Below are positions 16,624-44,728 of a stretch of DNA of 64,000 nt, one piece after another. Location of the stretch: assembly GCA_964604135.1 (NCBI GenBank), contig CAZRXU010000002.1, positions 636-64,635 of the forward strand. Direction: 5' to 3'. The notes beneath the pieces are model-generated. The model was not told the origin of the DNA, searched no databases, and saw nothing but the letters and a program-made list of their open reading frames with translations. Within the stretch, counting starts at the first letter, position 1, and each line of letters starts with the position of its first letter. Source of the DNA: an uncultured bacterium. Lineage in GTDB: Bacteria > Fermentibacterota > Fermentibacteria > Fermentibacterales > JCC-6. Made by a program: the position numbers and the translations under genes.

Positions 16624-18564
16624 ATGAAAACAGCATTTCTTATGATCGTAGTTTTTGCCTGTGTTTCCTTTGCCGTCGGGCTTACAAAGGTGGAATCTTC
16701 TGAAACAAGTATCACATTCGACCTCAGTGCAGCAGTGCCTGAATTCGGCTCTGAGACTCTTCAGGGAACAGAGTTTACCACAGTAAGCATGAACGGTGCA
16801 GAGAATCTTGAAGAAGCAGGACTTCCCAGACTTCCGGTGTACAGAGTCTGGATTGAAATTCCGGTTGGAGCAGAGGTTAACGCAACAGTGTCGGAGGCGC
16901 GTGTCGAAGCAATCAGTGGCAACGGCAACGCTGTTATTCCGGCCGTTCTTAGTGCGTCGAAGAACGAGCCAAGGGAATCCTTCACGGTTTCTTTTGATTC
17001 GGATGTTTACAGTGATGGCTCGGTTTACCCCGAAAACTGGGTAAGAGTTATTTACGCAGGAGGCATGCGCGGGCGCAACCTGGCCCTTGTGGAAGTTACA
17101 CCTCTCAGGTGGAACCCTGCCCGGGGTGATTACACTCTTCTTGCAGATGCCAGAGTTACACTGGAGTTCCAGGGCGGCGATCTTGCAGCCACATACGAGC
17201 AGGCTTCCCGCCTTGCAAGTGCCGGATACGAAAGCATTCTGAGCAGTACTGTTGTTAACTACGGAACCTACGAAAGCGGAATGGACACAGGTCCTGCGCC
17301 TTACCTTATTATTGGTCACAGCAACTTTGTAGCAACAGCTATGGATGCCTTTGTAGCCCACAAGGAAGCTCTGGGATTTACAGTTACAATGGTTGATCTC
17401 TCTGTCACCGGGTCAACTGCCGCTGAAATTCGCACATACATTCAGGGTGCTATTAATACCGGAACCGAATACGTTCTTCTTGTGGGAGACACAGCGTTTC
17501 TTCCAGGCGGAACTGCAACAACCTACAGCGATGTTACCGATCTTTACTACGCCTGTCTCGATGATGGCGGATGGATTCCGGATGTATTCCTGGGCAGGTT
17601 TAGTGTAACAACTGCAGCAGAGGTAGCAACGATGGCCCAGAGGGTCATCGATTACGAGAACACCGGTGGTATTCAGACTTGGGTGCAGAATGCTCTGTTT
17701 ATTGCTTCGAGCGATAACTCCAGTGTTTCCGAAGGTACACACAACTACTGTATATCCAATTACCTCGACCCCAGAGTTTACAATTCCACAAAAGTGTATC
17801 CTTCCCAGGGTGGTACTGCCGCAAACGCTGTTCCCGTTATTAACGGGGGTATCTCAATGCTTACATTCAGCGGACACGGTTCAAAAACCAGCTGGGTGGA
17901 TATGAGTTTCAGCGCTGGTAATTTCAACCAGCTTAACAATGGACCCATGTTTCCGGGAGTTCTTAGCCATGCCTGCCTCACCGGTGCATACAGTACTTCA
18001 ACATGCTGGGCTGAAAGATGGACAAGAACACCAAACAGAGGCGGACTTTGGTTCTGGGGTTCTGTTCCAAACACATACTGGGGTGAAGATGACTACCAGG
18101 AAAAAGGCGAGTATGCTTCGTTCATAGGCGACAATGCCTATTGGCCGAAGGGCTTCTTGAATCAGGGTCTTATGGCAGTGTATACCGCATACAGCGGTGG
18201 CGGAAGAACACATTACTACTTCGAGGGTTACACTCTTTTCGGTGATCCGAGTCTTAGAATGAAAACATGGCCCATGACAAGTATTGAGGATTTCACTTCC
18301 AGTGTGATCGACTCCCCAATTTCTGTGTCTGCCTCCAATCCTGTATACGGCAGTGCATCTGTAACACTTACAGGTACTGGCGGACCTGCTGTTGTTGAGG
18401 TTTTCGATGTAACTGGCCGTGTGGTGGACACACCGTTCAACGGAAATCTTAACGGTTCATCCATGTTTACGTGGGATACAAATTCCATGTCTGCAGGTGT
18501 GTACTTCATGCGCCTCTCGCAGGGAAGCAACACCGCAACTTCCAGAGTCAGTGTAGTTAAATAG
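16624..18564 (+). CDS. Peptidase C25 (gingipain-like) cysteine protease with a T9SS-type C-terminal sorting domain
   Basis: Signal peptide. C25 propeptide-like N-terminus (GLPRLPVYRVWIEIP). Catalytic His in FSGHGS and Cys in LSHACLTGAY. YVLLVGD motif. C-terminal EVFDVTGRVV...GVYFMRL...SVVK. Confidence 0.85.
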   Translation: MKTAFLMIVVFACVSFAVGLTKVESSETSITFDLSAAVPEFGSETLQGTEFTTVSMNGAENLEEAGLPRLPVYRVWIEIPVGAEVNATVSEARVEAISGNGNAVIPAVLSASKNEPRESFTVSFDSDVYSDGSVYPENWVRVIYAGGMRGRNLALVEVTPLRWNPARGDYTLLADARVTLEFQGGDLAATYEQASRLASAGYESILSSTVVNYGTYESGMDTGPAPYLIIGHSNFVATAMDAFVAHKEALGFTVTMVDLSVTGSTAAEIRTYIQGAINTGTEYVLLVGDTAFLPGGTATTYSDVTDLYYACLDDGGWIPDVFLGRFSVTTAAEVATMAQRVIDYENTGGIQTWVQNALFIASSDNSSVSEGTHNYCISNYLDPRVYNSTKVYPSQGGTAANAVPVINGGISMLTFSGHGSKTSWVDMSFSAGNFNQLNNGPMFPGVLSHACLTGAYSTSTCWAERWTRTPNRGGLWFWGSVPNTYWGEDDYQEKGEYASFIGDNAYWPKGFLNQGLMAVYTAYSGGGRTHYYFEGYTLFGDPSLRMKTWPMTSIEDFTSSVIDSPISVSASNPVYGSASVTLTGTGGPAVVEVFDVTGRVVDTPFNGNLNGSSMFTWDTNSMSAGVYFMRLSQGSNTATSRVSVVK

Positions 18565-21585: not shown

Positions 21586-22998
21586 TTATTTAAGGGCCAG
21601 CATGGCAGATTCAATTTTTCCCTGGTCTAGAAAAACTATTGCAAACCTGAGTTTGGCAATCTCAGGGCTGTTGGGATTTTTCTTTTCCAGCTGAGCAATT
21701 CTTCTTTCGGCTGCCAGTTTAAGAGCTTCTATCTGGCTGGTAACTGTTGTTGCACTCTCAATTATGTTGATTGTGTGTTCTCGTGTAGGTGATGCAGTTT
21801 CCACTGCAGGTTTTTCGGGAACAGTTTTCTGCGAAGTGTTTAATTCACTGGTGTCATCCTTTGCTTCCGCAGAAGCTGTGCTGCCAGCCAGCTGTTTCTT
21901 CGCTGCTGTTCCTGATCTTTTCTCTTCGAGAGCCTTTTTGAATTTTTGTTCGTCTGAGTCTGCTGCGTTTTCTTCGTCTTCGATGTCAACAACAATGTAG
22001 GGAGAGGGGGATTTTTCTTCCTGATTCCTGGTGTCTTTGGAAGCTGCTGCCCCCGGTTTACTTTTCACAGGATCCATGAGATTCATGGAATTAAGCAGGC
22101 TTGTTACAGTATCCATAGATATGCCAGTTCTGGAAGGCGAGGCAAGAAGATTTGCAAGAACAGCTCTTCCTGCGGCTTTCAAAGTTCTGATGTTCTGTGT
22201 TATTCTTGTGGCTATGTAGTTGATTATATCAGGACCAGGGCCAAACCCGGTGTTCTTGAACATCCTTTCGAGAACAGACATGCGTCCGGCAATGTCCATG
22301 GGTTTGAGCTCAACCGAAATACCGGAGGAGATTCTGGAAAAGAAAGTAGCATCGAAATCCTGCATGTTTTCCACTTCAGAGTTGGAACACAGAACAATTG
22401 CACTCTTACCGTGAGGCATTCTGTTGAAGACAGAGCAGAGGAAATGCTGAAATTCAATATCTCCGTGCACAAATTGAAGATCATCGAGCAGAAGAAAATT
22501 GTGGCTGGTTATCCATGACAGAAGCGGACTTTCTTTGTTGGTTCTCACGCAGTATTTGTACCCCATCTTAAGATCGTTGAGGTTCAGAAAAAGTGTTTTT
22601 TGTCTGGAAGCCGATGCAATGGCAGAGAGCAGGTGAGTTTTGCCCTGCCCGGTTCCCGCGTGGAACAGAATAGGAGATATACTTTTCCATATTCTGGGAA
22701 TAAGGGCAACTGTGCGGGCGAGTTCCACTGCATAGGAGTTCTCATCGGTTACCACGTAGTTCTCGAATGTTCTGCCGTCCCGGGGGACGAAAGCAAGAAG
22801 ATCTGTGAAGCGATCGCTGTTGTCAGGGTGATCACCAGGGAACGCTGGAATTGCCTCTACGCCTCCCTGATACTTCGCAAACAGGCAAATTTCCCGAGCT
22901 GTGGGTTCAGAGATGTAACCTGAATCAGCACACATCTGCATAAACTCAACAAAATGAAGACGATTTCCGTTGTCAATGGAGTTTGGCTTGTCGGTCAT
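21586..22998 (-). CDS. DnaA-like AAA+ ATPase without DNA-binding domain IV, with an acidic/coiled-coil C-terminal tail
   Basis: FENYVV..N..A......A, Walker A GTGQGKTHLLSAI, Walker B LLLDDLQF, box VII-like FFSRISSG and sensor-2-like QNIRTLKAA are collinear with DnaA domain III. The last 170 aa or so are low-complexity acidic plus a coiled coil. The ATG abuts the upstream stop (TAAATG). Confidence 0.7.
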   Translation of the reverse strand: MTDKPNSIDNGNRLHFVEFMQMCADSGYISEPTAREICLFAKYQGGVEAIPAFPGDHPDNSDRFTDLLAFVPRDGRTFENYVVTDENSYAVELARTVALIPRIWKSISPILFHAGTGQGKTHLLSAIASASRQKTLFLNLNDLKMGYKYCVRTNKESPLLSWITSHNFLLLDDLQFVHGDIEFQHFLCSVFNRMPHGKSAIVLCSNSEVENMQDFDATFFSRISSGISVELKPMDIAGRMSVLERMFKNTGFGPGPDIINYIATRITQNIRTLKAAGRAVLANLLASPSRTGISMDTVTSLLNSMNLMDPVKSKPGAAASKDTRNQEEKSPSPYIVVDIEDEENAADSDEQKFKKALEEKRSGTAAKKQLAGSTASAEAKDDTSELNTSQKTVPEKPAVETASPTREHTINIIESATTVTSQIEALKLAAERRIAQLEKKNPNSPEIAKLRFAIVFLDQGKIESAMLALK

Positions 22999-25915: not shown

Positions 25916-27463
25916 GTGTTTAAGAAGATGATTCCGGTAGTGTTTGCAGTGATACTGGGGGCTTCGGGGTGTTCCCTTCTTGGCGGTGGCCTTGGAGCAG
26001 GAGATACGGCAGATGGTAATCTGGACAGTGGAGTAAGTATAGATGAACTGCTGCCGAATGCCGGTGAGGTTTTGCTTGCAGCAGGTATTGCAGTGGAAGA
26101 TGACTGGCCTGCACTGGAATTCTCGCTGAAGTCCGGTGATGGTGTATCGCTGTTTGTTGAAGCAGAAGATATTGACCCTGTAATGGTTGTTGTAGATGCA
26201 GAAGGCGGAATAGTTTCCGTGGGAGACGACTGGGACGAAGAGCTGGATGCATACATTTCCATGGATGAAGTTCCTGACGGAGCCAGAGTCATCGTGTTTG
26301 ATAACACAGGGGATGACGGAGAGTTTGTTCTTGAATTGGATGAATCAGACGATTATGTCTGGAAGCTTGAGACGGGAATGGAAATCGAATCAAGCGTTAT
26401 TGAAGACAAAGAGAATGATTATTGGGAAGACCTTCTTGAAGATATTGACGAAATCAGCGGTATAGACTGGGGGACATGCAGGGTTCTGCCCTTTGAAGTC
26501 AGAGGTGAAAAGTGGTTCAGAATTGCTGTTGACTCCGACATGGATTGCGTGATGACTGTTCTGAAGGTTGTTGACGGCGAGCTGGAGTACCAGGATTACG
26601 ATGACGATACCAGCGATATGAATCCTGTTTTTTCCGGCATGCTTGAAAGTGGAGACTACATTGCAGTTGTAGACACCTACAGTAATTTAGAGGGTGCTGA
26701 ATTTACAATCAGTGTGGAAGAGCTTGATCCAGAGGATATGGTTGCTGATGTGGTTTCTGCCGACCGGATAGATGAATGGTTCACCGGAGAATTTCATGAG
26801 AATGCCTTGGCCATGAATTACTGGCCTGAAGTCGATGATTACTTCGGTATCTTTCCTGAGGATAATATTCTGGTGTTTGAATTTGAGATAGAGGAAGAGG
26901 GCGAGTACCTGTTACAGGCTTCCTGTATTGATGACACGAAGATGGCTATTCTGGACAGCGAGGGTGTTCTGGTAGACTATAACGATGATGGCTCTGAAGG
27001 TATTGATCCGGAGCTTTCTATACGGCTTACACCGGGTTTCTACAGTGCGTTGATTGCTCCGTATGGTGATAGCTCCAGAGAGTCTGTAGACTTCAGATAC
27101 AGCCTGTCGGCTCCCATGGTACGCGAGAGTGGAACAGTTCCCATGGAAGAAACTTTCCAGATGCACTCCAATGTGTATATGTCCATGATGTTCGAGCCTG
27201 GAAATACCTACGAGATTTTTGCCGAAAGCGATATTGACCTGACTCTTAGAGTTGTAGACAGAACAGGTGAAGAGTATTTCAGCGATGATGACGGAGGAGA
27301 TTTCAACCCCTACCTGGAGATCGAATGCACCAGAGCCAACGCCGGGCAGTGGGAAATTGATCTCGAGTCCTACTCCGGTGGTGAAGCGAGTGGAGAAGTT
27401 TATTTTGTAGTAAGACCGGTTGGGCAGATCACAGAAGATGAATTTTCTGCGCCGGTGAAATAG
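25916..27463 (+). CDS. Highly acidic lipoprotein with four PPC-like repeats
   Basis: GTG start preceded by AAAGGAG. Lipobox LGASGC. Four modules of 80-110 aa, each with a ...D..L.V.D..G......DD......P.L.....G.Y...V pattern. Very Asp/Glu rich. Confidence 0.65.
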   Translation: MFKKMIPVVFAVILGASGCSLLGGGLGAGDTADGNLDSGVSIDELLPNAGEVLLAAGIAVEDDWPALEFSLKSGDGVSLFVEAEDIDPVMVVVDAEGGIVSVGDDWDEELDAYISMDEVPDGARVIVFDNTGDDGEFVLELDESDDYVWKLETGMEIESSVIEDKENDYWEDLLEDIDEISGIDWGTCRVLPFEVRGEKWFRIAVDSDMDCVMTVLKVVDGELEYQDYDDDTSDMNPVFSGMLESGDYIAVVDTYSNLEGAEFTISVEELDPEDMVADVVSADRIDEWFTGEFHENALAMNYWPEVDDYFGIFPEDNILVFEFEIEEEGEYLLQASCIDDTKMAILDSEGVLVDYNDDGSEGIDPELSIRLTPGFYSALIAPYGDSSRESVDFRYSLSAPMVRESGTVPMEETFQMHSNVYMSMMFEPGNTYEIFAESDIDLTLRVVDRTGEEYFSDDDGGDFNPYLEIECTRANAGQWEIDLESYSGGEASGEVYFVVRPVGQITEDEFSAPVK

Positions 27464-37333: not shown

Positions 37334-37969
37334 TTGATAAAGCAACTGAAGAGGGAGCTGAAAGATTCGGAGTACAGAAGGTACCAGCTGAAGAGTATTG
37401 TGTTCTTCGGTGTAGGTGTGGTTGTTCTTGCAATGATCGCCGGATATTTCTTCAGACAGAGCCCGGCCCGGCCTCCCACAGGGCTGGCTGGTATTGCCTG
37501 TGATTTCCCCAGCGGGAGGTGGTTCAACACCGCAGAACCTCTCAGTCTGTATGACCAGCTTCGAGGGCATGTTGTGGTTGTTCTTTTCAACGATTTCAAC
37601 ACCCTGTCTGACCTGGAAGATCTTTCCAGGTTCAGTGAGCTGAACCGTCTGTTCGTCGATCAGTCTATGTTTGGAATTGTTGTATTGACCAGCGGAGAAA
37701 CAGCAACCGCAGATTCTCTTGTAAATCAGTGGCAGATTGACTGCCCTGTGCTGGCTGACCCGGACAGTGTGGCAATGCAGACTTTCGGCATAAGAGCTCT
37801 TCCGGCGGTTCTTGTTATTGACTCACGAGCAAGGGTTGCCGCGCGTTACTATGAAGACTGGCAGAGGATACCCATTGAAGCCGTAATACAGGATCTTCTG
37901 GATCAGGGAGTTGCCACACATTCACTGGCAGCTGTGAAATTTGTACCCGGCACTACGGATCTGCAGTGA
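37334..37969 (+). CDS. Membrane-anchored thioredoxin-fold (TlpA/redoxin-like) protein lacking the CxxC motif
   Basis: N-terminal TM segment. GHVVVVLFNDFNTLSD occupies the position of GK.V.V.FWA.WC..C. Downstream FGIRALPAVLVIDSRARV matches the cis-Pro region. TTG start. Confidence 0.55.
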   Translation: MIKQLKRELKDSEYRRYQLKSIVFFGVGVVVLAMIAGYFFRQSPARPPTGLAGIACDFPSGRWFNTAEPLSLYDQLRGHVVVVLFNDFNTLSDLEDLSRFSELNRLFVDQSMFGIVVLTSGETATADSLVNQWQIDCPVLADPDSVAMQTFGIRALPAVLVIDSRARVAARYYEDWQRIPIEAVIQDLLDQGVATHSLAAVKFVPGTTDLQ

Positions 37970-37991
37970 TAACCAACGGAAAGAGGATGCA

Positions 37992-39116
37992 ATGATACAA
38001 CCCCATGGAGGAGAACTGGTCAACAGAACCATAACTGAAGACCAGCTTTCCGGTAATGCCATGGTTTTAAATTTGAATGAACGGGAGAAAAACGACCTCG
38101 AGATGATAGGCTGCGGAGCTATGAGCCCTCTTGAGGGTTTTATGGTAAGCGCAGACTACAACTCTGTGGTAGACAGCATGCGCCTTGCCAGCGGTACTGT
38201 GTGGAGTCTCCCGGTTGTTTTTTCAAAGAAAGCAGATGATCCTGAAGTTTCCGTGGGTGATGAGGTTGTTTTTAACTACAACGGTGTTCTTCGGGGAACC
38301 ATGAAGGTTGAAGAGATATTTCAGGCTGACCTTATGCACGAAGCCCGCAAGACACTTCTTACCGACGACGAAAACCACCCGGGGGTTCAGTATCTTAACA
38401 GCATCAGCGGCACATACATTGGCGGGCAGATAAGTGCCATTGATATGCGTGACCACGAGCCTTTCAGAGAACACAGGCTAATTCCGGAAGAGACCAGAGC
38501 ACTTTTTCAGGAAAAGGGCTGGAAGAGTATCGTTGCCTTTCAAACAAGAAATCCTATCCACCGTGCTCACGAGTACCTGCAGAAAGTTTCTCTGGAAATG
38601 GTGGACGGCCTGCTTGTTCATCCTCTGGTAGGGGCCACAAAGGCCGATGATATTCCGGCTGACGTAAGAATGAAATGTTACGAAACCATTCTTGAAAAGT
38701 ACTACCCCGCAGACAGAACAGCTCTAAGTGTTTTCCCGGCTGCCATGCGCTATGCCGGTCCCAGGGAGGCGATCTTCCACGCGCTTATAAGGAAGAATTA
38801 CGGCTGCACCCATTTTATAGTGGGCAGAGATCACGCAGGTGTGGGAGACTACTACGGCACCTACGATGCACAGACAATATTTGAGTCTTTCGAGCCGGAA
38901 GAGATAGACATAATTCCTTTGAAGTTTGAGCACGCTTTTTACTGCAATACCTGTGGCGGTATGGCCACGGCAAGAACATGCCCCCATACAGGAGCTGACA
39001 GAGTGTTTCTCTCCGGCAAGAAAGTAAGAGCCATGCTCAACGATGGAATACTTCCTCCGCCTGAATTCACCCGTCCTGAGATTGCTCAGATTCTTATGGA
39101 AGCGGTATCGAAGTAA
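37992..39116 (+). CDS. sat: Sulfate adenylyltransferase (ATP sulfurylase)
   Basis: MIQPHGGELVNR, QTRNPIHRAHEYL and GRDHAGVG motifs. AAGAGGA upstream of ATG 37992. Confidence 0.92.
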   Translation: MIQPHGGELVNRTITEDQLSGNAMVLNLNEREKNDLEMIGCGAMSPLEGFMVSADYNSVVDSMRLASGTVWSLPVVFSKKADDPEVSVGDEVVFNYNGVLRGTMKVEEIFQADLMHEARKTLLTDDENHPGVQYLNSISGTYIGGQISAIDMRDHEPFREHRLIPEETRALFQEKGWKSIVAFQTRNPIHRAHEYLQKVSLEMVDGLLVHPLVGATKADDIPADVRMKCYETILEKYYPADRTALSVFPAAMRYAGPREAIFHALIRKNYGCTHFIVGRDHAGVGDYYGTYDAQTIFESFEPEEIDIIPLKFEHAFYCNTCGGMATARTCPHTGADRVFLSGKKVRAMLNDGILPPPEFTRPEIAQILMEAVSK

Positions 39117-39117
39117 A

Positions 39118-39155
39118 AGTATCCCCTGTGTCTTTTAAAGACGCAGGGGATACTT
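39118..39155 (-). terminator. Hairpin terminator closing the rSAM-peptide transcription unit (shared convergent gap with sat)
   Basis: AGTATCCCCTG (39118-39128) pairs with CAGGGGATACT (39144-39154). On the minus strand the stem is followed by TTTTAC; on the plus strand there is no T-run. Confidence 0.55.
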
Positions 39156-39216
39156 ACTGCCAGAAAGGTTGTTTGTTCAGTATAACTGAAGGATTAGGCT
39201 GGAAGCCTACATCCAG

Positions 39217-39357
39217 TTACCCATTTTGTACGCACACAGCCTGGAAGCAGTGACAGTCGGGCCCGCACACGGCCTGGAAGCAATGACAGTCGGGCCCGCA
39301 CACTGCTTGATGACAATGACAGGAATCAACCATACCCGTTTTTACAATATTACTCAT
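39217..39357 (-). CDS. 46-aa Cys/His-rich triple-repeat peptide (candidate RiPP precursor): MSNIVKTGMVDSCHCHQAVCGPDCHCFQAVCGPDCHCFQAVCVQNG
   Basis: Hand translation of the minus strand. ATG at 39357 lies 4 nt after the rSAM stop (39362-39364) and TAA is at 39217-39219. 9 Cys and 4 His. Encoded by a 33-bp tandem repeat whose two inter-copy differences (CAT/CAC, GCC/GCT) are synonymous in this frame only. Below the 60-aa cutoff of the ORF track. No clear SD, so coupling to the rSAM stop is assumed. Confidence 0.7.
   Translation of the reverse strand: MSNIVKTGMVDSCHCHQAVCGPDCHCFQAVCGPDCHCFQAVCVQNG
39232..39323. repeat. 33-bp tandem repeat, about 2.8 copies
   Basis: 39232-39264 and 39265-39297 differ at 2 of 33 positions. 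39298-39323 is a diverged partial third copy. Confidence 0.9.
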
Positions 39358-39361
39358 GGGC

Positions 39362-40669
39362 TCATTTACAAATTTCATTCCCACTTCCTTTCTGTTTTCC
39401 GGCAGTTAATGATATATAAGAACCAGTGATTGATTTTATGTACTCGCTATCTGACTTATAGAGGCACTTAGGTTCCCGATTCATTACAGCATTCCTTGGG
39501 CACCCCCCTCCACAACTAGGCAAATATGAACACTCATAGCACGGACTTCCCGGCAAGTAAGGATCCCACCCTGCCCATTTCGAAAAGGTGACAATATCTT
39601 CCTCCGCCGAATCATCAAAAATAGTACTGCTACTCTCATTGTCATCCAGATGCTCCCAGCATCTAACGAGTTTGCCGTTTGGAAGCACAACACCGGGTTT
39701 TAAAGAGCTTGCTCCGCAGCCTCCCACGAATGAGTAAATATTTCTGAGGGTAACCTGTTCAACTGGCAGAGTTTCAGCAATTTTTTTCTGGGTATTTGAA
39801 TAGAACTCGGTATCTCCCTGACAGGACAAATCAACCGGGGCGAGATGAACATCTGTAAGAGGCAGGGGTGCAATCATTTCCTTAAGCTTGTTGATCTCGT
39901 CCAGTTTAGGATCCTTGACATTCATTCTTACATGAATCTGAACAATACCGGCACATGCTTTTATATTCTGTATAATTCTGTCGTATGTGCCACTTCCATT
40001 TGCCAGGGGTCTGTTGGAGTCATGAATCTCTTTCGAGCCATCAATGGTTACCTGTATGTGGCTGATACCGCACTCTTTCAGCTTCTGCAAACGCTCCGGA
40101 GAAAGGAGATACCCGTTGGTGATCATACCTGCATCGAAGGTGGCGCCACTACTCTCTACCGCTTTCTTGCATCGTTTTGCAATATCAATGCATTTATCAT
40201 ATTCGAGAAGAGGTTCTCCCCCGTATAGTGTAAGGGAAAACTGTTTTCCTTCGAATTCTTCTGCCTTCTTAACAACCTGCTCTAGAACTTCATCTGTTAT
40301 CGAATCACCTCCTTCAAGGATCGAATGCTCAAAACAGTAGGTACACCGAAAGTTACATTTTCTGGTCATCACTAAAGTATAGTTACTCATTAATGTAGGC
40401 ATAATAAACTTCGATGAATTATAACTGATTCGTAAAAGGTTTCTTTCATCAAGTTCATCCTGAATAATATATCCACCATGTTTTAAAGCACTCACTAACT
40501 CATTTCCCATTGTTGCGAGAGAGTCATCTATGCTGTCATTACCAGCGAACAACTCCTTGAGAGAGTTAACATTTTCCTTTTCGAGAACCGCCATTGCTCC
40601 AGTGAATCCATTGTATGCTATTGTATTACCTTCGTGCTCTACAATCCAGTTGTAACGTGACAGTTTCAC
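39362..40669 (-). CDS. Radical SAM / SPASM-domain enzyme with an N-terminal extension of about 100 aa (peptide-maturase architecture)
   Basis: CX3CX2C at C105/C109/C112 (RKCNFRCTYCFE). C-terminal SPASM signature CX2CX5CX3C (CYECSYLPSCGGGC), plus upstream Cys in GGCGAS and VRCWE. GTG start at 40669 with AAGGGGGA 4-5 nt upstream. Confidence 0.88.
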   Translation of the reverse strand: MKLSRYNWIVEHEGNTIAYNGFTGAMAVLEKENVNSLKELFAGNDSIDDSLATMGNELVSALKHGGYIIQDELDERNLLRISYNSSKFIMPTLMSNYTLVMTRKCNFRCTYCFEHSILEGGDSITDEVLEQVVKKAEEFEGKQFSLTLYGGEPLLEYDKCIDIAKRCKKAVESSGATFDAGMITNGYLLSPERLQKLKECGISHIQVTIDGSKEIHDSNRPLANGSGTYDRIIQNIKACAGIVQIHVRMNVKDPKLDEINKLKEMIAPLPLTDVHLAPVDLSCQGDTEFYSNTQKKIAETLPVEQVTLRNIYSFVGGCGASSLKPGVVLPNGKLVRCWEHLDDNESSSTIFDDSAEEDIVTFSKWAGWDPYLPGSPCYECSYLPSCGGGCPRNAVMNREPKCLYKSDSEYIKSITGSYISLTAGKQKGSGNEICK

Positions 40670-40770
40670 TGAATCCCCCTTAATAATATGAAGCCATAAT
40701 ACACCTGCAGCATTGTCTGGTCAATTCGCCTGGAATTGAGCAATGCTAACCACTCTTGGCCAGAAAAAGC

Positions 40771-40799
40771 ATTATTAAGATGATTTACAGTTAAGTCAA
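40771..40799 (-). promoter_or_regulatory. Possible sigma70-type promoter for the rSAM-peptide unit
   Basis: Minus strand reads TTGACT (40799-40794), a 17-nt spacer, then AATAAT (40776-40771). This would give a leader of about 95 nt. Pattern match only. Confidence 0.25.
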
Positions 40800-41036
40800 G
40801 GCAATACCAATGCCTATTCTTAGCGTCTTATCAGCACAACACGCCTGCAATACAATTATCCATACATGTATGTTGTTGCATGATGTATATGGCGTTTGCT
40901 TATTGTCAGGATAGTGCGAATACGGTAGTAGATGAATGCTGCAGTAATCAAGGAGGGTAATGGTGTCGCTCAAACAGCATTACCACCTCTTTTACATTGT
41001 CGAAACGGGTTAGTACTTCTGTCAACACCAGTTGAG

Positions 41037-41063
41037 CAGGGGGATTCAGTGCAAATCCCCCTG
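41037..41063 (-). terminator. 10-bp perfect hairpin downstream of sppA (possible terminator/insulator)
   Basis: CAGGGGGATT (41037-41046), loop CAGTGCA, AATCCCCCTG (41054-41063). No T-run on either strand. Confidence 0.3.
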
Positions 41064-41170
41064 TCCGGAATGATCGTATCCCATCAAACCACAAACAAAG
41101 GAGGCAAAGCACTCACCTGTCAGTCAGAACGAAAAAATCCATGAAACAGGGAAGGCAGAAGGAATTCCGG

Positions 41171-43534
41171 TTATTCGATAACAAGCTCCGGGGCCAGATA
41201 CAGAGGTCCTTCAATGTTGACGAAAGGGTCTTGCGTTACAGCTTCCAGTGTTCCAAGCGCAGAAAGACCTCCCAGGGGAAAACTGATAGAGCCCAGCCCT
41301 GTAAGCTTAGGGAACACAACGATATCAGGGTTGCCATTGATGTCAGCAAGCCTTGCAGCGTGGGCAACCGCGTCCATTACGCCTCCGTTGTAGTCAACCA
41401 GGCCGAGTTCAAGAGCATCGGCACCGGACCACACCCTGCCCTGACCTATAGCATCTATCTCATCAAAGGTTTTGTTTCTGCCACGGGCAACTGTGGAAAC
41501 GAACAGGTTGTAGCCTTCGCGCATGGCATCGAACTGACTTTCGCGCTGTTCTGCCGTGCACGGTTCAAAGATATTGCCCGGGACTCCAGCGGGCTGAATT
41601 TCAACTTTCTCTACATTTACGCCTATTCTGCTGAGCAAATCTCCGAACACGAATTTACCGCTGATGATTCCAATGGATCCGGTTACAGTGAATTTATCTG
41701 CAAAAATCGCGTCTGCCCCGCAGGCAATGTAGTAACCTCCGCTTGCAGCAGCACTGCCCATGCTTACCACTACAGGCATTCTTTCCCTGATGTTTTCCAC
41801 TGTGTGGTTAATATCATCGCTTGCCATGGCATCGCCGCCACCGGAGTTGATCCTAAGAACAACAGCTTTGACTCCCGGTGTGTTTGCGGCCTGTTCCAGC
41901 ATTCCTGTGACAGTTTCACTGCCCATGGTACGACCGAGAATAGATGTGCCGCTGTGCCCGTTAATAATATTCCCGTCGGCGACTACAACTGCAATGCGGG
42001 GGTCGAACCCCCAGTTGGAAGAGGCCTCGGGCAGGTCGTTGTAGAAATCAGTACTCATTGTTGTTACAGAACAGTTCAACTCATGGCCTACATAGCTTTC
42101 AAATTGATCTCTGTACAGCAGTGTGTCTACAAGGCCTGTAATAACCATAGATTCACCGGCAAATGCAGACCGGGAAAACAGAACACTCATCTGAGCCGGT
42201 TCAAACCCTCTTCCTTCAGTAACTCCTCTGATAAATTCTGTTTTGTATGATTCCAGCATGGCTGTGGTCGCCTCTATCTGGGCATCTGATATACCATGCT
42301 CTGTAATCATATCACTGAAACTTTTGTAGGCACCTATGTGCATGAGGTCGGGGTAAATACCTATGTTGTCAAGCAGACCCCTGATAAAGAAAGTGTAGCT
42401 GGTGAAACCGCTAATGGAAACCTGACCCGCTTTGTGCATACAGATGGTTCTGGCCGCTGCTGCAGTGTAGTACGAGCTGTTCCCGGAGTTGTTCATATAG
42501 GCGAACACAGGTTTTCCAAGTGAACGGTAATCGACCATTATACTTCTGAGTTCTTCGGACTGCGCTGCACTCAGGGAGTAGCCGGAAAAATCTATAAGAA
42601 GCCCTTTTACCCTGGAGTCGTGAGCACCGGATGCAAGAGCTGCCATCTGTTCGGTGAAGCAGGAAACCCTGGGGCCCAGAAAGGCACGGCCTGGAAGCTC
42701 GTTCCCGTTGTCTGCACTGTAGCTGAGGAACTTTGGCAGAGGTTCGATGATGCTTGGCTGGGAATGCTCGTTAAGGATAATTCCGGTAGTTGCACTAAGG
42801 TAATCACCGTCGTGAATATCGGCTCCGGCGGTTATACCCGCCTTTCCGAAATCAAGCTGTATACCTGCTGTCAGCACCTGATCTTCGCCGTAAGCGCATC
42901 TGAATGTTAGGCCGTCTATTGCCCGAAGTTCCGCGCCCGCCGACCACCGGTTGTCAATGATTCCCGATGCAAACCTGTAGTCGCCGGTCAAAGTAACTGT
43001 TTCATCGCCCAGAGGGCGAAGAGCAACGCCTGCAATGTAGCAGCCGTCGATGTCTCCTGTGGATGTTCGGGCAGTTGCCCCGATGCCTATGTGGTCGTCC
43101 GGTCTGATGTTAATACCCAGTGTGAGGAATTTCTCACCGGCCTGAGGGTGGTTTTTCACTGTGGGGTCGTACCATGTGAATCCAAGCCCTGCCGAGAAGG
43201 CGTTACCGAACTGGTAGGCTCCTGATGTAGTAAACCGTCTCAGGCTCTGATTGTCTTCCCACCATCCGGCAAAACCGCCTGATCTGTCTTCTATTGAAAA
43301 TCGGTCAATGTGTTCAAATGTACTGTCGCTGAATACAGCTCCTGCCCTGAAACGAGTTCCGTTGAGCCAGCTAGTTCCAGCCGGGTTGATCAGCAGAGTG
43401 TTGCCTGCTTCGGGATATGCCGTCCACCAGAATGGTACAGAGGGACCGGGAGCCGGATCCATAGCCCAGGAGAAAAGGGCCAGGGCAACAAAAACGGAAC
43501 CAACCATAATACACCACCTTTCAATTGCAGACAA
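41171..43534 (-). CDS. sppA: Signal peptide peptidase SppA (67K type, two S49 domains) with a beta-rich N-terminal extension of about 270 aa
   Basis: S49 motifs VVLRINSGGG...SMGSAAASGGYYIACGAD.IFA...TVTGSIGI, plus a first degenerate S49 repeat. N-terminal region Gly/aromatic rich. Alternative start at Met10. Confidence 0.8.
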   Translation of the reverse strand: MSAIERWCIMVGSVFVALALFSWAMDPAPGPSVPFWWTAYPEAGNTLLINPAGTSWLNGTRFRAGAVFSDSTFEHIDRFSIEDRSGGFAGWWEDNQSLRRFTTSGAYQFGNAFSAGLGFTWYDPTVKNHPQAGEKFLTLGINIRPDDHIGIGATARTSTGDIDGCYIAGVALRPLGDETVTLTGDYRFASGIIDNRWSAGAELRAIDGLTFRCAYGEDQVLTAGIQLDFGKAGITAGADIHDGDYLSATTGIILNEHSQPSIIEPLPKFLSYSADNGNELPGRAFLGPRVSCFTEQMAALASGAHDSRVKGLLIDFSGYSLSAAQSEELRSIMVDYRSLGKPVFAYMNNSGNSSYYTAAAARTICMHKAGQVSISGFTSYTFFIRGLLDNIGIYPDLMHIGAYKSFSDMITEHGISDAQIEATTAMLESYKTEFIRGVTEGRGFEPAQMSVLFSRSAFAGESMVITGLVDTLLYRDQFESYVGHELNCSVTTMSTDFYNDLPEASSNWGFDPRIAVVVADGNIINGHSGTSILGRTMGSETVTGMLEQAANTPGVKAVVLRINSGGGDAMASDDINHTVENIRERMPVVVSMGSAAASGGYYIACGADAIFADKFTVTGSIGIISGKFVFGDLLSRIGVNVEKVEIQPAGVPGNIFEPCTAEQRESQFDAMREGYNLFVSTVARGRNKTFDEIDAIGQGRVWSGADALELGLVDYNGGVMDAVAHAARLADINGNPDIVVFPKLTGLGSISFPLGGLSALGTLEAVTQDPFVNIEGPLYLAPELVIE

Positions 43535-43593: not shown

Positions 43594-44619
43594 TCAGAAT
43601 GACCTTCCGAAGGCACTTTGAATCAACATACCCTCTTCACTCCAGGCAGCATCCAGCCGCATTTGTGCCGAAGAATTCAGCTTGATATCCAGCCCGCACC
43701 CACAGTCGGTGTGAAGTCTGTTAATGGTTAGTTCTGTGAATTCTTCTGCGGCTTCCCCTGCTTCTGCAAAAACCGTGGCACCAATTGTTAGTGCCTGATC
43801 ACTTCCAGCCTTACCAAGTGTGAACAGATCCTGCCTTACTTCAAACTGGGAAAGGTTCCACACGGTACCGGTGAACCTGTAGTCTTTGTAGCCTCTGAAA
43901 TTTTCGTTCTGGCCGATACCTGCCACATAGGGAACCGGTGCTTTCGCAGCGTTGAACTGCCGGTGAACTCTTGTACCGAGTGCAATTTCGCCGCCTGACC
44001 ATGGTCTTACAGTACCTCTGACTTTACCTGAAAGACCGCTGTAAGACACATCTCCAGCTTGAAAGAAGCCCCCGGCGCAAAGAAGTATGTCTCCATTTAC
44101 GGGAATAGCTGTGGTGTAGTCGATTCTTCCGCTGAGTCCTGTTGTCCAGGTTGAAGCGAAGTTCTCCTCTGAAAGGCTGCTCCACAGAACACTTTGTTCC
44201 CTGTTGAACACGGAAGAGTGCCGGACATCAAGACCTGCTGTAAAGGAAAAATGGCTGCCGGCTGGAGCGGTGAAGGTTACAAGCAGGTCTGCTTTTTCAA
44301 AATCCATTGTTGCAAAAGAGTCGGGATCTGTATTGTTTCCCCAGCCGTACCATTCTTTGCCGATAACCTTTCTGTAACCGGGACTGATTGAAAGCAGTCC
44401 CGAGTGATACACTCTTAGCATCTCCGGCTGGAACTTTATTACTCCTGCGGTACCATAGTATGTGTTGACTGTGAATTGCCCCGGAGGGGAGGAGAGAGGA
44501 AAGACCAGGAACCCTCCGAAGATGAATCCTGATGAGGCGGAATACCCCAGTGTGGGCAGGGCGGAGAAAGCAAAAGCAGAGGCAACGAATAATGCCAGAA
44601 TGGCTGTTGTTTTTTTCAT
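43594..44619 (-). CDS. Putative outer-membrane beta-barrel protein
   Basis: ATG 44619 (MKKTTAILALFVASAFAFSA signal peptide). Alternating beta-strand pattern. C-terminus ...SAFGRSF ends in Phe. Confidence 0.6.
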   Translation of the reverse strand: MKKTTAILALFVASAFAFSALPTLGYSASSGFIFGGFLVFPLSSPPGQFTVNTYYGTAGVIKFQPEMLRVYHSGLLSISPGYRKVIGKEWYGWGNNTDPDSFATMDFEKADLLVTFTAPAGSHFSFTAGLDVRHSSVFNREQSVLWSSLSEENFASTWTTGLSGRIDYTTAIPVNGDILLCAGGFFQAGDVSYSGLSGKVRGTVRPWSGGEIALGTRVHRQFNAAKAPVPYVAGIGQNENFRGYKDYRFTGTVWNLSQFEVRQDLFTLGKAGSDQALTIGATVFAEAGEAAEEFTELTINRLHTDCGCGLDIKLNSSAQMRLDAAWSEEGMLIQSAFGRSF

Positions 44620-44728
44620 GTTCTTCCCTTTCCTGAAAGTATTTGTGAACATACTGTGTGTGTCTGCATCGGGGAAGAGTGAGTTTGTAACCGCACAGCA
44701 ATGGATTATATTGACGCAAATTGTGAAA

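Follow-up and report, generated by a model that had tools for sequence, protein, structure and literature searches.

A candidate RiPP precursor–maturase pair with a repeated cysteine module from Candidatus Fermentibacterota

Does a small cysteine-rich open reading frame (ORF) that directly follows the gene of a radical S-adenosylmethionine (SAM) enzyme in an uncultured bacterium encode that enzyme's substrate, and what would the enzyme make of it? The question is raised by a 64,000-nucleotide stretch of contig CAZRXU010000002.1 (GenBank assembly GCA_964604135.1), here called the window, whose minus strand encodes a radical SAM/SPASM enzyme and, behind it, a peptide of 53 residues. An earlier reading of the window, made from its letters without database searches (the sequence-only reading), had proposed that the two form a cassette for a peptide made on the ribosome and modified after translation (RiPP). 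A similar ORF lies beside every homologous enzyme for which downstream flank is available, and it is very likely that enzyme and peptide are a genuine RiPP precursor–maturase pair. They probably represent a rare, unnamed RiPP family from Candidatus Fermentibacterota. The two genes and the presumed ribosome-binding site of the second are as follows.

39362..40669, minus strand: gene of the radical SAM/SPASM peptide maturase, 435 aa, from GTG (after GGGGGA) to TGA
39217..39378, minus strand: candidate precursor peptide gene, 53 aa plus TAA, MKFVNEPMSNIVKTGMVDSCHCHQAVCGPDCHCFQAVCGPDCHCFQAVCVQNG, from translation; leader conserved in relatives
39384..39391, minus strand: Shine-Dalgarno-like AAAGGAAG, 5 nt before ATG 39378, from the sequence

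The first 17 nt of the peptide gene are shared with the 3′ end of the enzyme gene, whose TGA stands at 39364-39362. The sequence-only reading had opened the ORF at ATG 39357, four nucleotides (GCCC) after that stop codon, and closed it with the TAA at 39219-39217. Both codons are where it placed them, but ATG 39357, which would give a product of 46 aa (MSNIVKTGMVDSCHCHQAVCGPDCHCFQAVCGPDCHCFQAVCVQNG), is an internal Met8 and was rejected as the start: the orthologues and the Shine-Dalgarno sequence point to ATG 39378. The frame is open upstream as far as GTG 39384. Judged from its conservation among orthologues, ATG 39378 is the start of the peptide (MKFVNEP...), and an equivalent Shine-Dalgarno sequence is found in relatives, namely AAGGAG before MKFVNEP in locus L002 and AAAAAGGAG before MTFVNEP in locus L001 (loci carry the prefix L, enzyme homologues the prefix P). 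The leader had also been described as unusually short, at 10-12 aa, and as lacking a Shine-Dalgarno sequence. This oddity disappears, since it came from taking the internal Met8 as the start; the leader spans about 15 aa and the Shine-Dalgarno-like element stands 5 nt upstream of the start. The peptide can then be divided into the following parts.

39334..39378, minus strand: proposed leader, residues 1-15, MKFVNEPMSNIVKTG; boundary presumed to follow the conserved Gly
39220..39333, minus strand: proposed core, three units [S/D]-C-H-C-[H/F]-Q-A-V-C with G-P-D joints, ending V-Q-N-G, from the codon table
39231..39322, minus strand: 33-nt (11-codon) tandem repeat in 2.8 copies; Tandem Repeats Finder, 88% matches, score 133

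Across the peptide alignment M1 is invariant, P7 is present in at least 90% of sequences, and a Gly column at positions 15-19 is occupied in at least 70%; this Gly may mark the leader–core junction. The 38 core residues of the window peptide hold nine Cys and four His, and the triple repeat that the sequence-only reading had described coincides with the 33-nt period, a tandem repeat from which the three units of the core arose. V-Q-N closes the third unit, versus G-P-D in the others.

The evidence that the pair is real comes mainly from related loci. The comparison set consists of 11 enzyme groups besides the window (12 including it), with enzyme identities of 31-72%. Most loci were obtained by exact-protein look-ups, while scans of genomes and metagenomes with an enzyme profile gave three and eight loci, respectively. 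In each of the 11 groups, the enzyme gene is directly followed by one to three small Cys-rich ORFs of the same orientation, and no informative locus at 31% enzyme identity or more is without such a downstream peptide. The contigs of P0004 and P0007 are uninformative as they stop at the enzyme stop codon. A twelfth locus, L010, is cut by its contig end inside a leader-like ORF directly after the enzyme. The most distant locus, L008 from Kurthia massiliensis (enzyme identity 27%), has no comparable peptide near the enzyme and was excluded from the family. L003 and L006 are one contig, and P0121 is the P0001 protein with its start residue written V.

The closest enzymes are P0002 (72% identity) and P0003 (68%, labelled Candidatus Sabulitectum sp.), followed by P0004-P0007 at 51-55%, beyond which identity falls to about 36%. 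In a library of 1.84 billion representatives the tight enzyme clade amounts to one representative (745 bits), with about two dozen more at 300-400 bits, and 3114 proteins match the enzyme profile at E <= 1e-30.

A leader motif, M-x-F-[VIL]-x-x-P, occurs in seven of the 11 comparison groups, and in the remaining four its place is taken by a less strict hydrophobic form. The motif is carried by L001, L002/3/6, L004/5, L012/13/16/25-27, L019, and L022, and L021 has a sequence close to it. As a control, the motif followed by at least three Cys in an ORF of no more than 95 aa was sought in six frames of 247 kb, comprising the window and 27 loci. All 27 matches lay just downstream of a radical SAM gene and on its strand, while shuffled copies of the window gave 0.12 matches per 64 kb.

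These loci bear on the explanation that the small ORF is not a gene but a frame produced by a GC-rich tandem repeat, the enzyme acting on a protein or small molecule encoded elsewhere, in the way that anSME and QhpD modify proteins. Such a frame would fit with the fact that the repeat is free of stop codons in all three minus-strand frames, that no source annotates the window peptide, and that no exporter or protease gene lies near the pair in the window. It would not be expected to show a leader, position, and strand that are conserved in all checkable loci while the DNA of the cores shows no relationship, nor a Shine-Dalgarno sequence at the conserved start, nor substitutions that are mostly synonymous both in the leader and between units; moreover, four family peptides have been called as genes by other pipelines. 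The enzyme also differs from the anaerobic sulfatase-maturating enzymes (anSME). Its score against the anSME model TIGR03942 is 70.1 bits (cut-off 349) in an alignment that begins at residue 102, and about 95 residues precede its radical SAM cluster region, a long N-terminal stretch that the sequence-only reading had already contrasted with anSME. An anSME-like protein maturase was rejected, and an ORF without coding function is barely credible.

The frame in orthologous loci is intact. Comparison of the leader codons of the window, L001, and L002 yields synonymous changes (GTA/GTG, AAT/AAC, GAG/GAA, CCC/CCA), and among the nine codons common to the window units, five of seven codon differences are synonymous (TGT/TGC, CAA/CAG, GCA/GCC, CAT/CAC, GCC/GCT). 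This pattern argues for purifying selection on the peptide frame. The repeat itself appears to be the unit of change. L002 and L003 derive from two metagenome-assembled genomes with an identical enzyme protein, and the compared stretches of DNA around their peptides (L002:5058-5195 and L003:5079-5183) are identical but for one exact 33-nt unit, so that the L002 peptide has two units and that of L003 one; the window peptide has three units of its own. The 11-codon segment D-C-x-C-x4-C-x-x is thus a module that is gained or lost in frame. The peptides of the family are listed below.

L001: MTFVNEPKSTLDKQGLDCVCKWDCPGLCTEWCICNLECNCNLNMCIAN
L002: MKFVNEPMDIGVNIPTEGDCDSDCRCNPNFCIADCRCNPNFCIAN
L003/L006: like L002, but with a single DCRCNPNFCIA unit
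L004/5: MKFISNPVDVV... and a second ORF with GTG start, (M)NFINKPATDT...
L019: MEFINDPKDIKVDVGECQGCKANPWVQVPPCPPDCPCNMCVCIADN
L012/13/16/25-27: three tandem genes, MEFVSQP..., MEFIEVP..., and MQFITPP...
L021: (M)DIIIEP...
L022: MSFLVNP...
L007/9: MEVISEG...
L011/15, L023, and L024: subgroup ending ...CSKGN...

As in the window, enzyme stop and peptide start can overlap, by 4 nt (ATGA) in L001 and by 1 nt in L004. The cores are highly variable and Cys-rich, and most end in C-x-C-x(3-6)-C-[IVLM]. A hydrophobic residue (V, F, M, L, L, F, Y, I, I, V) always stands directly before the last core Cys, and in the family signature this Cys is directly followed by I, V, L, or M. A W-x-C or K-W motif is conserved in several cores (L001, L007, L012, L019, L021).

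Two side observations concern these peptides. The precursors of L011/L015, L023, and L024, a sister subgroup, have less strictly defined, hydrophobic leaders (MKIIAEA, MVVVASG, MVAVYQG, MTILSMA) with a conserved C-terminal C-x-C-S-K-G-N, and by their sequences they appear to constitute a second unnamed precursor family. L001 has a further precursor-like copy behind its first peptide gene (L001:5558-5743). The ATG of this copy has been replaced, leaving GTG as the only start (TAA TTT GTG AAT GAG CCA versus ATG ACA TTT GTG AAT GAA CCA in the first copy), and its Cys-rich tail (CLCTCHEINCYIAC) is out of frame with its leader. The copy has the look of a duplicate in decay or of a frameshift from assembly.

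Existing models do not capture these peptides. A single-sequence search with the window peptide in a 55-aa form found no match in 5.8 billion clustered proteins. Twelve family peptides scanned against NCBIfam and Pfam were likewise without a match, the window peptide having none in NCBIfam even at E <= 10. A peptide profile search recovered four peptides of relatives that had been called as genes, all from loci already in the set. The precursor family is effectively unannotated; the sequence-only reading had not recognised the core sequence as a named family either.

What kind of enzyme accompanies these peptides? Three regions of the 435-aa protein are relevant.

40334..40357, minus strand: CX3CX2C radical SAM [4Fe-4S] motif, Cys105/109/112, invariant in 120 homologues
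39464..39718, minus strand: SPASM region with Cys 318/337/377/380/386/390/402, two auxiliary Fe-S clusters, invariant in a 120-sequence alignment
40391..40669, minus strand: N-terminal domain, about 93 residues, resembling a RiPP recognition element (RRE; winged-helix) in topology, proposed leader binder, from the predicted fold

The two cysteine motifs are present as the sequence-only reading had given them, with Cys377/380/386/390 forming CX2CX5CX3C in the translation, and the SPASM region aligns to those of CteB and anSME in a profile alignment. A Pfam scan of the enzyme returned Radical_SAM PF04055 (81.6 bits, gathering cut-off 29.5) and Fer4_12 (43.8 bits) and no other family. The top NCBIfam matches are all radical SAM/SPASM peptide maturases, each below its cut-off: CefB at 189 bits (cut-off 600), TIGR04463 at 186 (525), Clo7bot at 184 (600), FlmE/OhkG at 178 (500), and the geopeptide maturase at 147 (400). 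The best-scoring family with experimental characterisation is PapB (NF047865), at 122.8 bits against a cut-off of 340. The models of the SCIFF maturase (TIGR03974, 71.7 bits, cut-off 425) and RumMC (69.1 bits, cut-off 720) score lower. None of eight homologues tested (P0005, 8, 13, 16, 18, 23, 31, and 48) reached an NCBIfam cut-off either.

The predicted structure leads to the same class. An AlphaFold2 model built on a seven-sequence alignment was discarded (predicted local distance difference test, pLDDT, 53); the final model, based on 120 sequences, has a pLDDT of 94.2 and a predicted template modelling (TM) score of 0.90. In a Foldseek search of the PDB this model matched CteB (5wgg) first, over its full length (E = 3e-19, TM 0.71), followed by TigE (8vpo, TM 0.65) and then anSME, ChlB, and SuiB. 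CteB is the best PDB match by sequence profile as well. Judged by sequence, the enzyme belongs among the peptide-maturase radical SAM/SPASM families and not in a non-peptide family; the sequence-only reading had assumed as much, and the profile matches agree with the CteB fold on the point.

The N-terminal domain is modelled as three strands (7-12, 15-20, 26-29) ahead of three helices (31-42, 48-53, 55-64), with pLDDT above 90. On this predicted fold the first 93 or so residues are proposed to be an RRE-like domain. Foldseek alignments of the full-length enzyme to CteB, TigE, and SuiB span about 450-470 columns, and in the full-length profile positions 3-214, which include the N-terminal domain, align to TigE residues 9-240. 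The domain alone has no Pfam match.

A plausible course of maturation can be outlined from these features. The leader motif M-K-F-V-N-E-P would dock on the RRE-like N-terminal domain. The radical SAM cluster bound by Cys105/109/112 would cleave SAM to a 5′-deoxyadenosyl radical, which would take a hydrogen from a core residue, while the two auxiliary Fe-S clusters of the seven-Cys SPASM domain would position and oxidise the substrate. A Cys sulfur would then attack the carbon radical so formed, with help from the auxiliary clusters, and each 11-residue module would gain one or more thioether rings. The leader would then be cut off near the conserved Gly15, and in relatives the product would be exported by the adjacent ABC transporter. 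The window has no ABC transporter gene, so export there would need a transporter encoded elsewhere.

The balance of evidence tips slightly towards a product with intramolecular Cys thioethers in which the 11-residue units, three in the window peptide, are separate ring modules. This reading is preferred because CteB is the best structural match, PapB is the best characterised profile match, and Cys is the conserved feature of the core. It is possible, if somewhat doubtful, that the last Cys of each unit is linked to the Asp or Asn at i+3 (C-G-P-D, C-G-P-D, and C-V-Q-N); alternatively, hydrophobic residues flanking the last Cys may be the acceptors. The four closest peptides all have x-x-D/N after the last Cys (CGPD twice and CVQN in the window, CIAD or CIAN in L001, L002, and L019), and with the PapB score they lend weak support to the Cys-to-Asp thioether that the sequence-only reading had suggested.

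Several observations weigh against this assignment or parts of it. The units have three Cys each and one Asp, and a Cys–Asp scheme therefore leaves most Cys unexplained. Distant members have Y, F, F, V, or P at the position of the D/N. The enzyme falls under every curated cut-off, so that the chemistry of the known families cannot be transferred to it with confidence. TigE, the second-best structural match, is described in publications as a cyclopropylglycine synthase and not as an enzyme that forms thioethers, and the fold accordingly does not fix the reaction. Searched alone as a profile against the PDB, the N-terminal domain finds TigE at a non-significant E = 0.23, which is why its assignment as RRE-like is kept on the predicted fold. 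Finally, tblastn found no homologue of the relatives' ABC transporter or beta-propeller protein in the 64-kb window, nor was a leader peptidase identifiable there.

The D-C-x-C-x4-C module may also carry a cross-link pattern that has not been described. This may take the form of two to three sulfur-to-carbon bridges per unit, or of a link to the hydrophobic neighbours of the third Cys; such a novelty is unlikely, if worth keeping in mind.

An alternative reading is a RiPP cassette in which the enzyme installs a change other than a thioether and the Cys serve as disulfides or as auxiliary-cluster ligands during catalysis. Candidates are a C–C or cyclophane link at the aromatic or hydrophobic neighbour of the third Cys, a TigE-like cyclopropylglycine on Val, Leu, or Ile, and epimerisation. 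TigE is the sole PDB profile match that reaches into the N-terminal domain, hydrophobic residues always flank the third Cys, W-x-C/K-W recurs in several cores, and the literature searched yielded no characterised chemistry for CefB, TIGR04463, Clo7bot, or FlmE/OhkG. What is conserved in the cores, however, is the Cys pattern and no particular acceptor residue; PapB and CteB, the best characterised score and the best structure, both form thioethers; and the SPASM domain has seven Cys, a count equal to that of CteB. A modification of this kind is thus considered rather unlikely.

The remaining alternative, mentioned by the sequence-only reading on account of the C-H-C motifs, is that the product is mainly a metal-binding peptide, metallothionein- or metallophore-like, with Cys and His ligands for Zn, Cu, or Fe and a minor tailoring role for the enzyme. 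The density of nine Cys and four His in 38 core residues is suggestive, as is the C-x-C spacing, which is typical of metallothioneins. The His are specific to the window peptide, though. Between the two Cys of C-x-C, relatives have R, N, V, I, P, Q, or K (orthologues with CRC, CNC, CVC, CIC, CPC, or CQC), and His-dependent metal binding was rejected as a family trait. The conserved leader and the adjoining ABC exporter of relatives are moreover a layout typical of secreted RiPPs, and every peptide has, closely coupled to it, an enzyme of its own that comprises about 435 aa and two auxiliary clusters. A product devoted mainly to metals is very improbable.

Comparison with characterised systems sharpens the preferred thioether reading and its limits. 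Freyrasin is a ranthipeptide with thioethers from Cys-S to Asp-C-beta in six C-X3-D repeats. PapB and freyrasin resemble the pair described here in combining a radical SAM/SPASM maturase with a short core of repeated Cys-containing units, and the close family members share with them a C-x-x-D/N after each unit. PapB is reported to link Cys to Asp or Glu and to accept C-Xn-D with n = 0-6 (PMC9413430); Cys–Asp, Cys–Thr, and Cys–Asn ranthipeptide links have been documented in nature (PMC11002830). The 330-position PapB profile, on the other hand, aligns from enzyme residue 95 on and leaves the N-terminal domain uncovered, and the repeat unit here is D-C-x-C-x4-C-x-x, with three Cys per 11 residues, rather than C-X3-D.

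CteB, which makes the SCIFF peptide thermocellin (Cys-S to Thr-C-gamma), shares with the window enzyme the order of N-terminal domain, radical SAM core, and SPASM domain and the seven SPASM Cys. One auxiliary-cluster site in the CteB structure (5WGG) reportedly binds a substrate Cys. Identity between the two enzymes is about 19%, however, and the precursor gene here lies downstream of the enzyme gene and overlaps it. The SCIFF precursor model does not recognise the window peptide, and with that family only the fold is shared. Sactipeptides have thioethers from Cys-S to an alpha carbon; of their maturases, RumMC gives the low model score quoted above, and SkfB in the PDB matches the enzyme (E = 7.6e-10) within the radical SAM core alone.

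Full-length profile matches, starting from enzyme residues 1-6, were obtained with TIGR04463, CefB (NF038107), and Clo7bot (TIGR04334). NCBIfam names connect CefB ('Cys-every-fifth') and TIGR04463 (rSAM_vs_C_rich) with Cys-rich peptides and all three with RiPP maturation. The literature searched contained no mention of TIGR04463, Clo7bot/TIGR04334, or Cys-every-fifth/NF038107, and 'CefB' occurred there only in unrelated senses. FlmE/OhkG, which matches from enzyme residue 1, is likewise an orphan family. Its clusters encode peptide arginases and Arg-containing precursors ending DD(I/V)LF (PMC12703449), neither of which accompanies the window pair. Its radical SAM chemistry was not found in the literature searched and is absent from the peptide-arginase paper (PMC12703449).

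At the profile level no PDB chain other than TigE aligns to the window enzyme in the N-terminal domain; identity is 16%. TigE acts on a repetitive core and its reported chemistry, cyclopropylglycine formation, is not based on Cys, unlike the cores described here, which are defined by their Cys. Taken together, the cassette resembles sactipeptide, ranthipeptide, and SCIFF systems yet falls outside each of the families against which it was checked.

The genes that accompany the pair differ among loci. An ABC transporter gene adjoins it in L001, L002, L004, L019, L023, L024, and L025-27, encoding a protein with the Pfam domains ABC_membrane and ABC_tran and no peptidase family. Distant clusters further encode a protein of about 370-400 aa with a weak match to DUF5128 (six-bladed beta-propeller), at L025:7377-8492, L021:3291-4415, L022:3941-5155, and L024:4062-5201. 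Its gene lies between the peptide genes and the ABC transporter gene in L024 and L025-27 and after the peptide gene in L021 and L022; it is missing from the close orthologues and the window. This protein could perhaps function in leader removal or immunity. The description as a two-gene cassette therefore holds in the window, while relatives add the transporter and distant ones the beta-propeller protein too. As flanking genes vary between loci, synteny does not extend around the cassette. At L025:12588-13196 there is a gene for a Y1-type transposase (PF01797), about 2.4 kb past the ABC transporter of the three-peptide cluster; together with neighbourhoods that differ in every locus, it hints at mobility.

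If confirmed, the pair would represent a RiPP family invisible to present curated models and annotation pipelines, from a phylum, Candidatus Fermentibacterota, for which no RiPP report was found in the literature searched. It holds no conceptual surprise, as radical SAM/SPASM enzymes with Cys-rich peptides are a crowded class with many orphans. Gain and loss of an exact 33-nt unit illustrates how the cores of repeat-module RiPPs diversify, and missed genes can be annotated by a simple rule, M-x-F-[VIL]-x-x-P or C-x-C-x(3-6)-C-[IVLM] just after an enzyme of this clade. The very short tag at the extreme N-terminus and the two-gene format make for an easy co-expression test and offer potential for engineering peptide cyclisation. 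Should the undescribed cross-link turn out to be true, the products would be 'beads-on-a-string' polycyclic peptides whose bead number shifts fast by 33-nt duplications and deletions, and they would form a new class of RiPP, from a phylum of uncultured anaerobes, with a compact enzyme that reads a seven-residue N-terminal tag.

In the window the pair is flanked by a convergent ATP-sulfurylase gene (37941-39116, plus strand) and a gene for an SppA-type peptidase (41171-43534, minus strand), and candidate signals are found at both of its ends.

39118..39155, minus strand: hairpin followed by UUUUACUU, -28 kcal/mol, z = -5.8, none of 200 shuffles as stable
40696..40724, minus strand: promoter-like TTGACC-17-TATTAT, 10 of 12 consensus positions, 27 nt before the enzyme start

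The hairpin, which the sequence-only reading had located correctly, sits between the pair and the ATP-sulfurylase gene and is likely the intrinsic terminator of the enzyme–peptide operon; a consensus terminator scan did not list it, and an Rfam scan of 38900-41300 gave as its sole match a chance miRNA-like one on this hairpin. Alignment of the upstream regions of the enzyme gene in orthologous loci shows conservation only at the Shine-Dalgarno sequence and the start codon, both of which are kept in L001 and L002.

Elsewhere in the window, a 369-aa frame at 41141-42250 (plus strand) is fully antisense to the SppA-type peptidase gene and most likely a shadow ORF. ORFs of 515 and 352 aa at 25916-27463 (plus strand) and 43594-44652 (minus strand) have no Pfam match at E <= 1e-4. 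A 470-aa protein encoded at 21586-22998 (minus strand) contains a DnaA ATPase domain (77 bits), and the chromosomal origin region may be near. At 16624-18564 (plus strand), a C25 (gingipain-like) peptidase bears a Por_Secre_tail type IX secretion sorting domain, which fits the FCB group.

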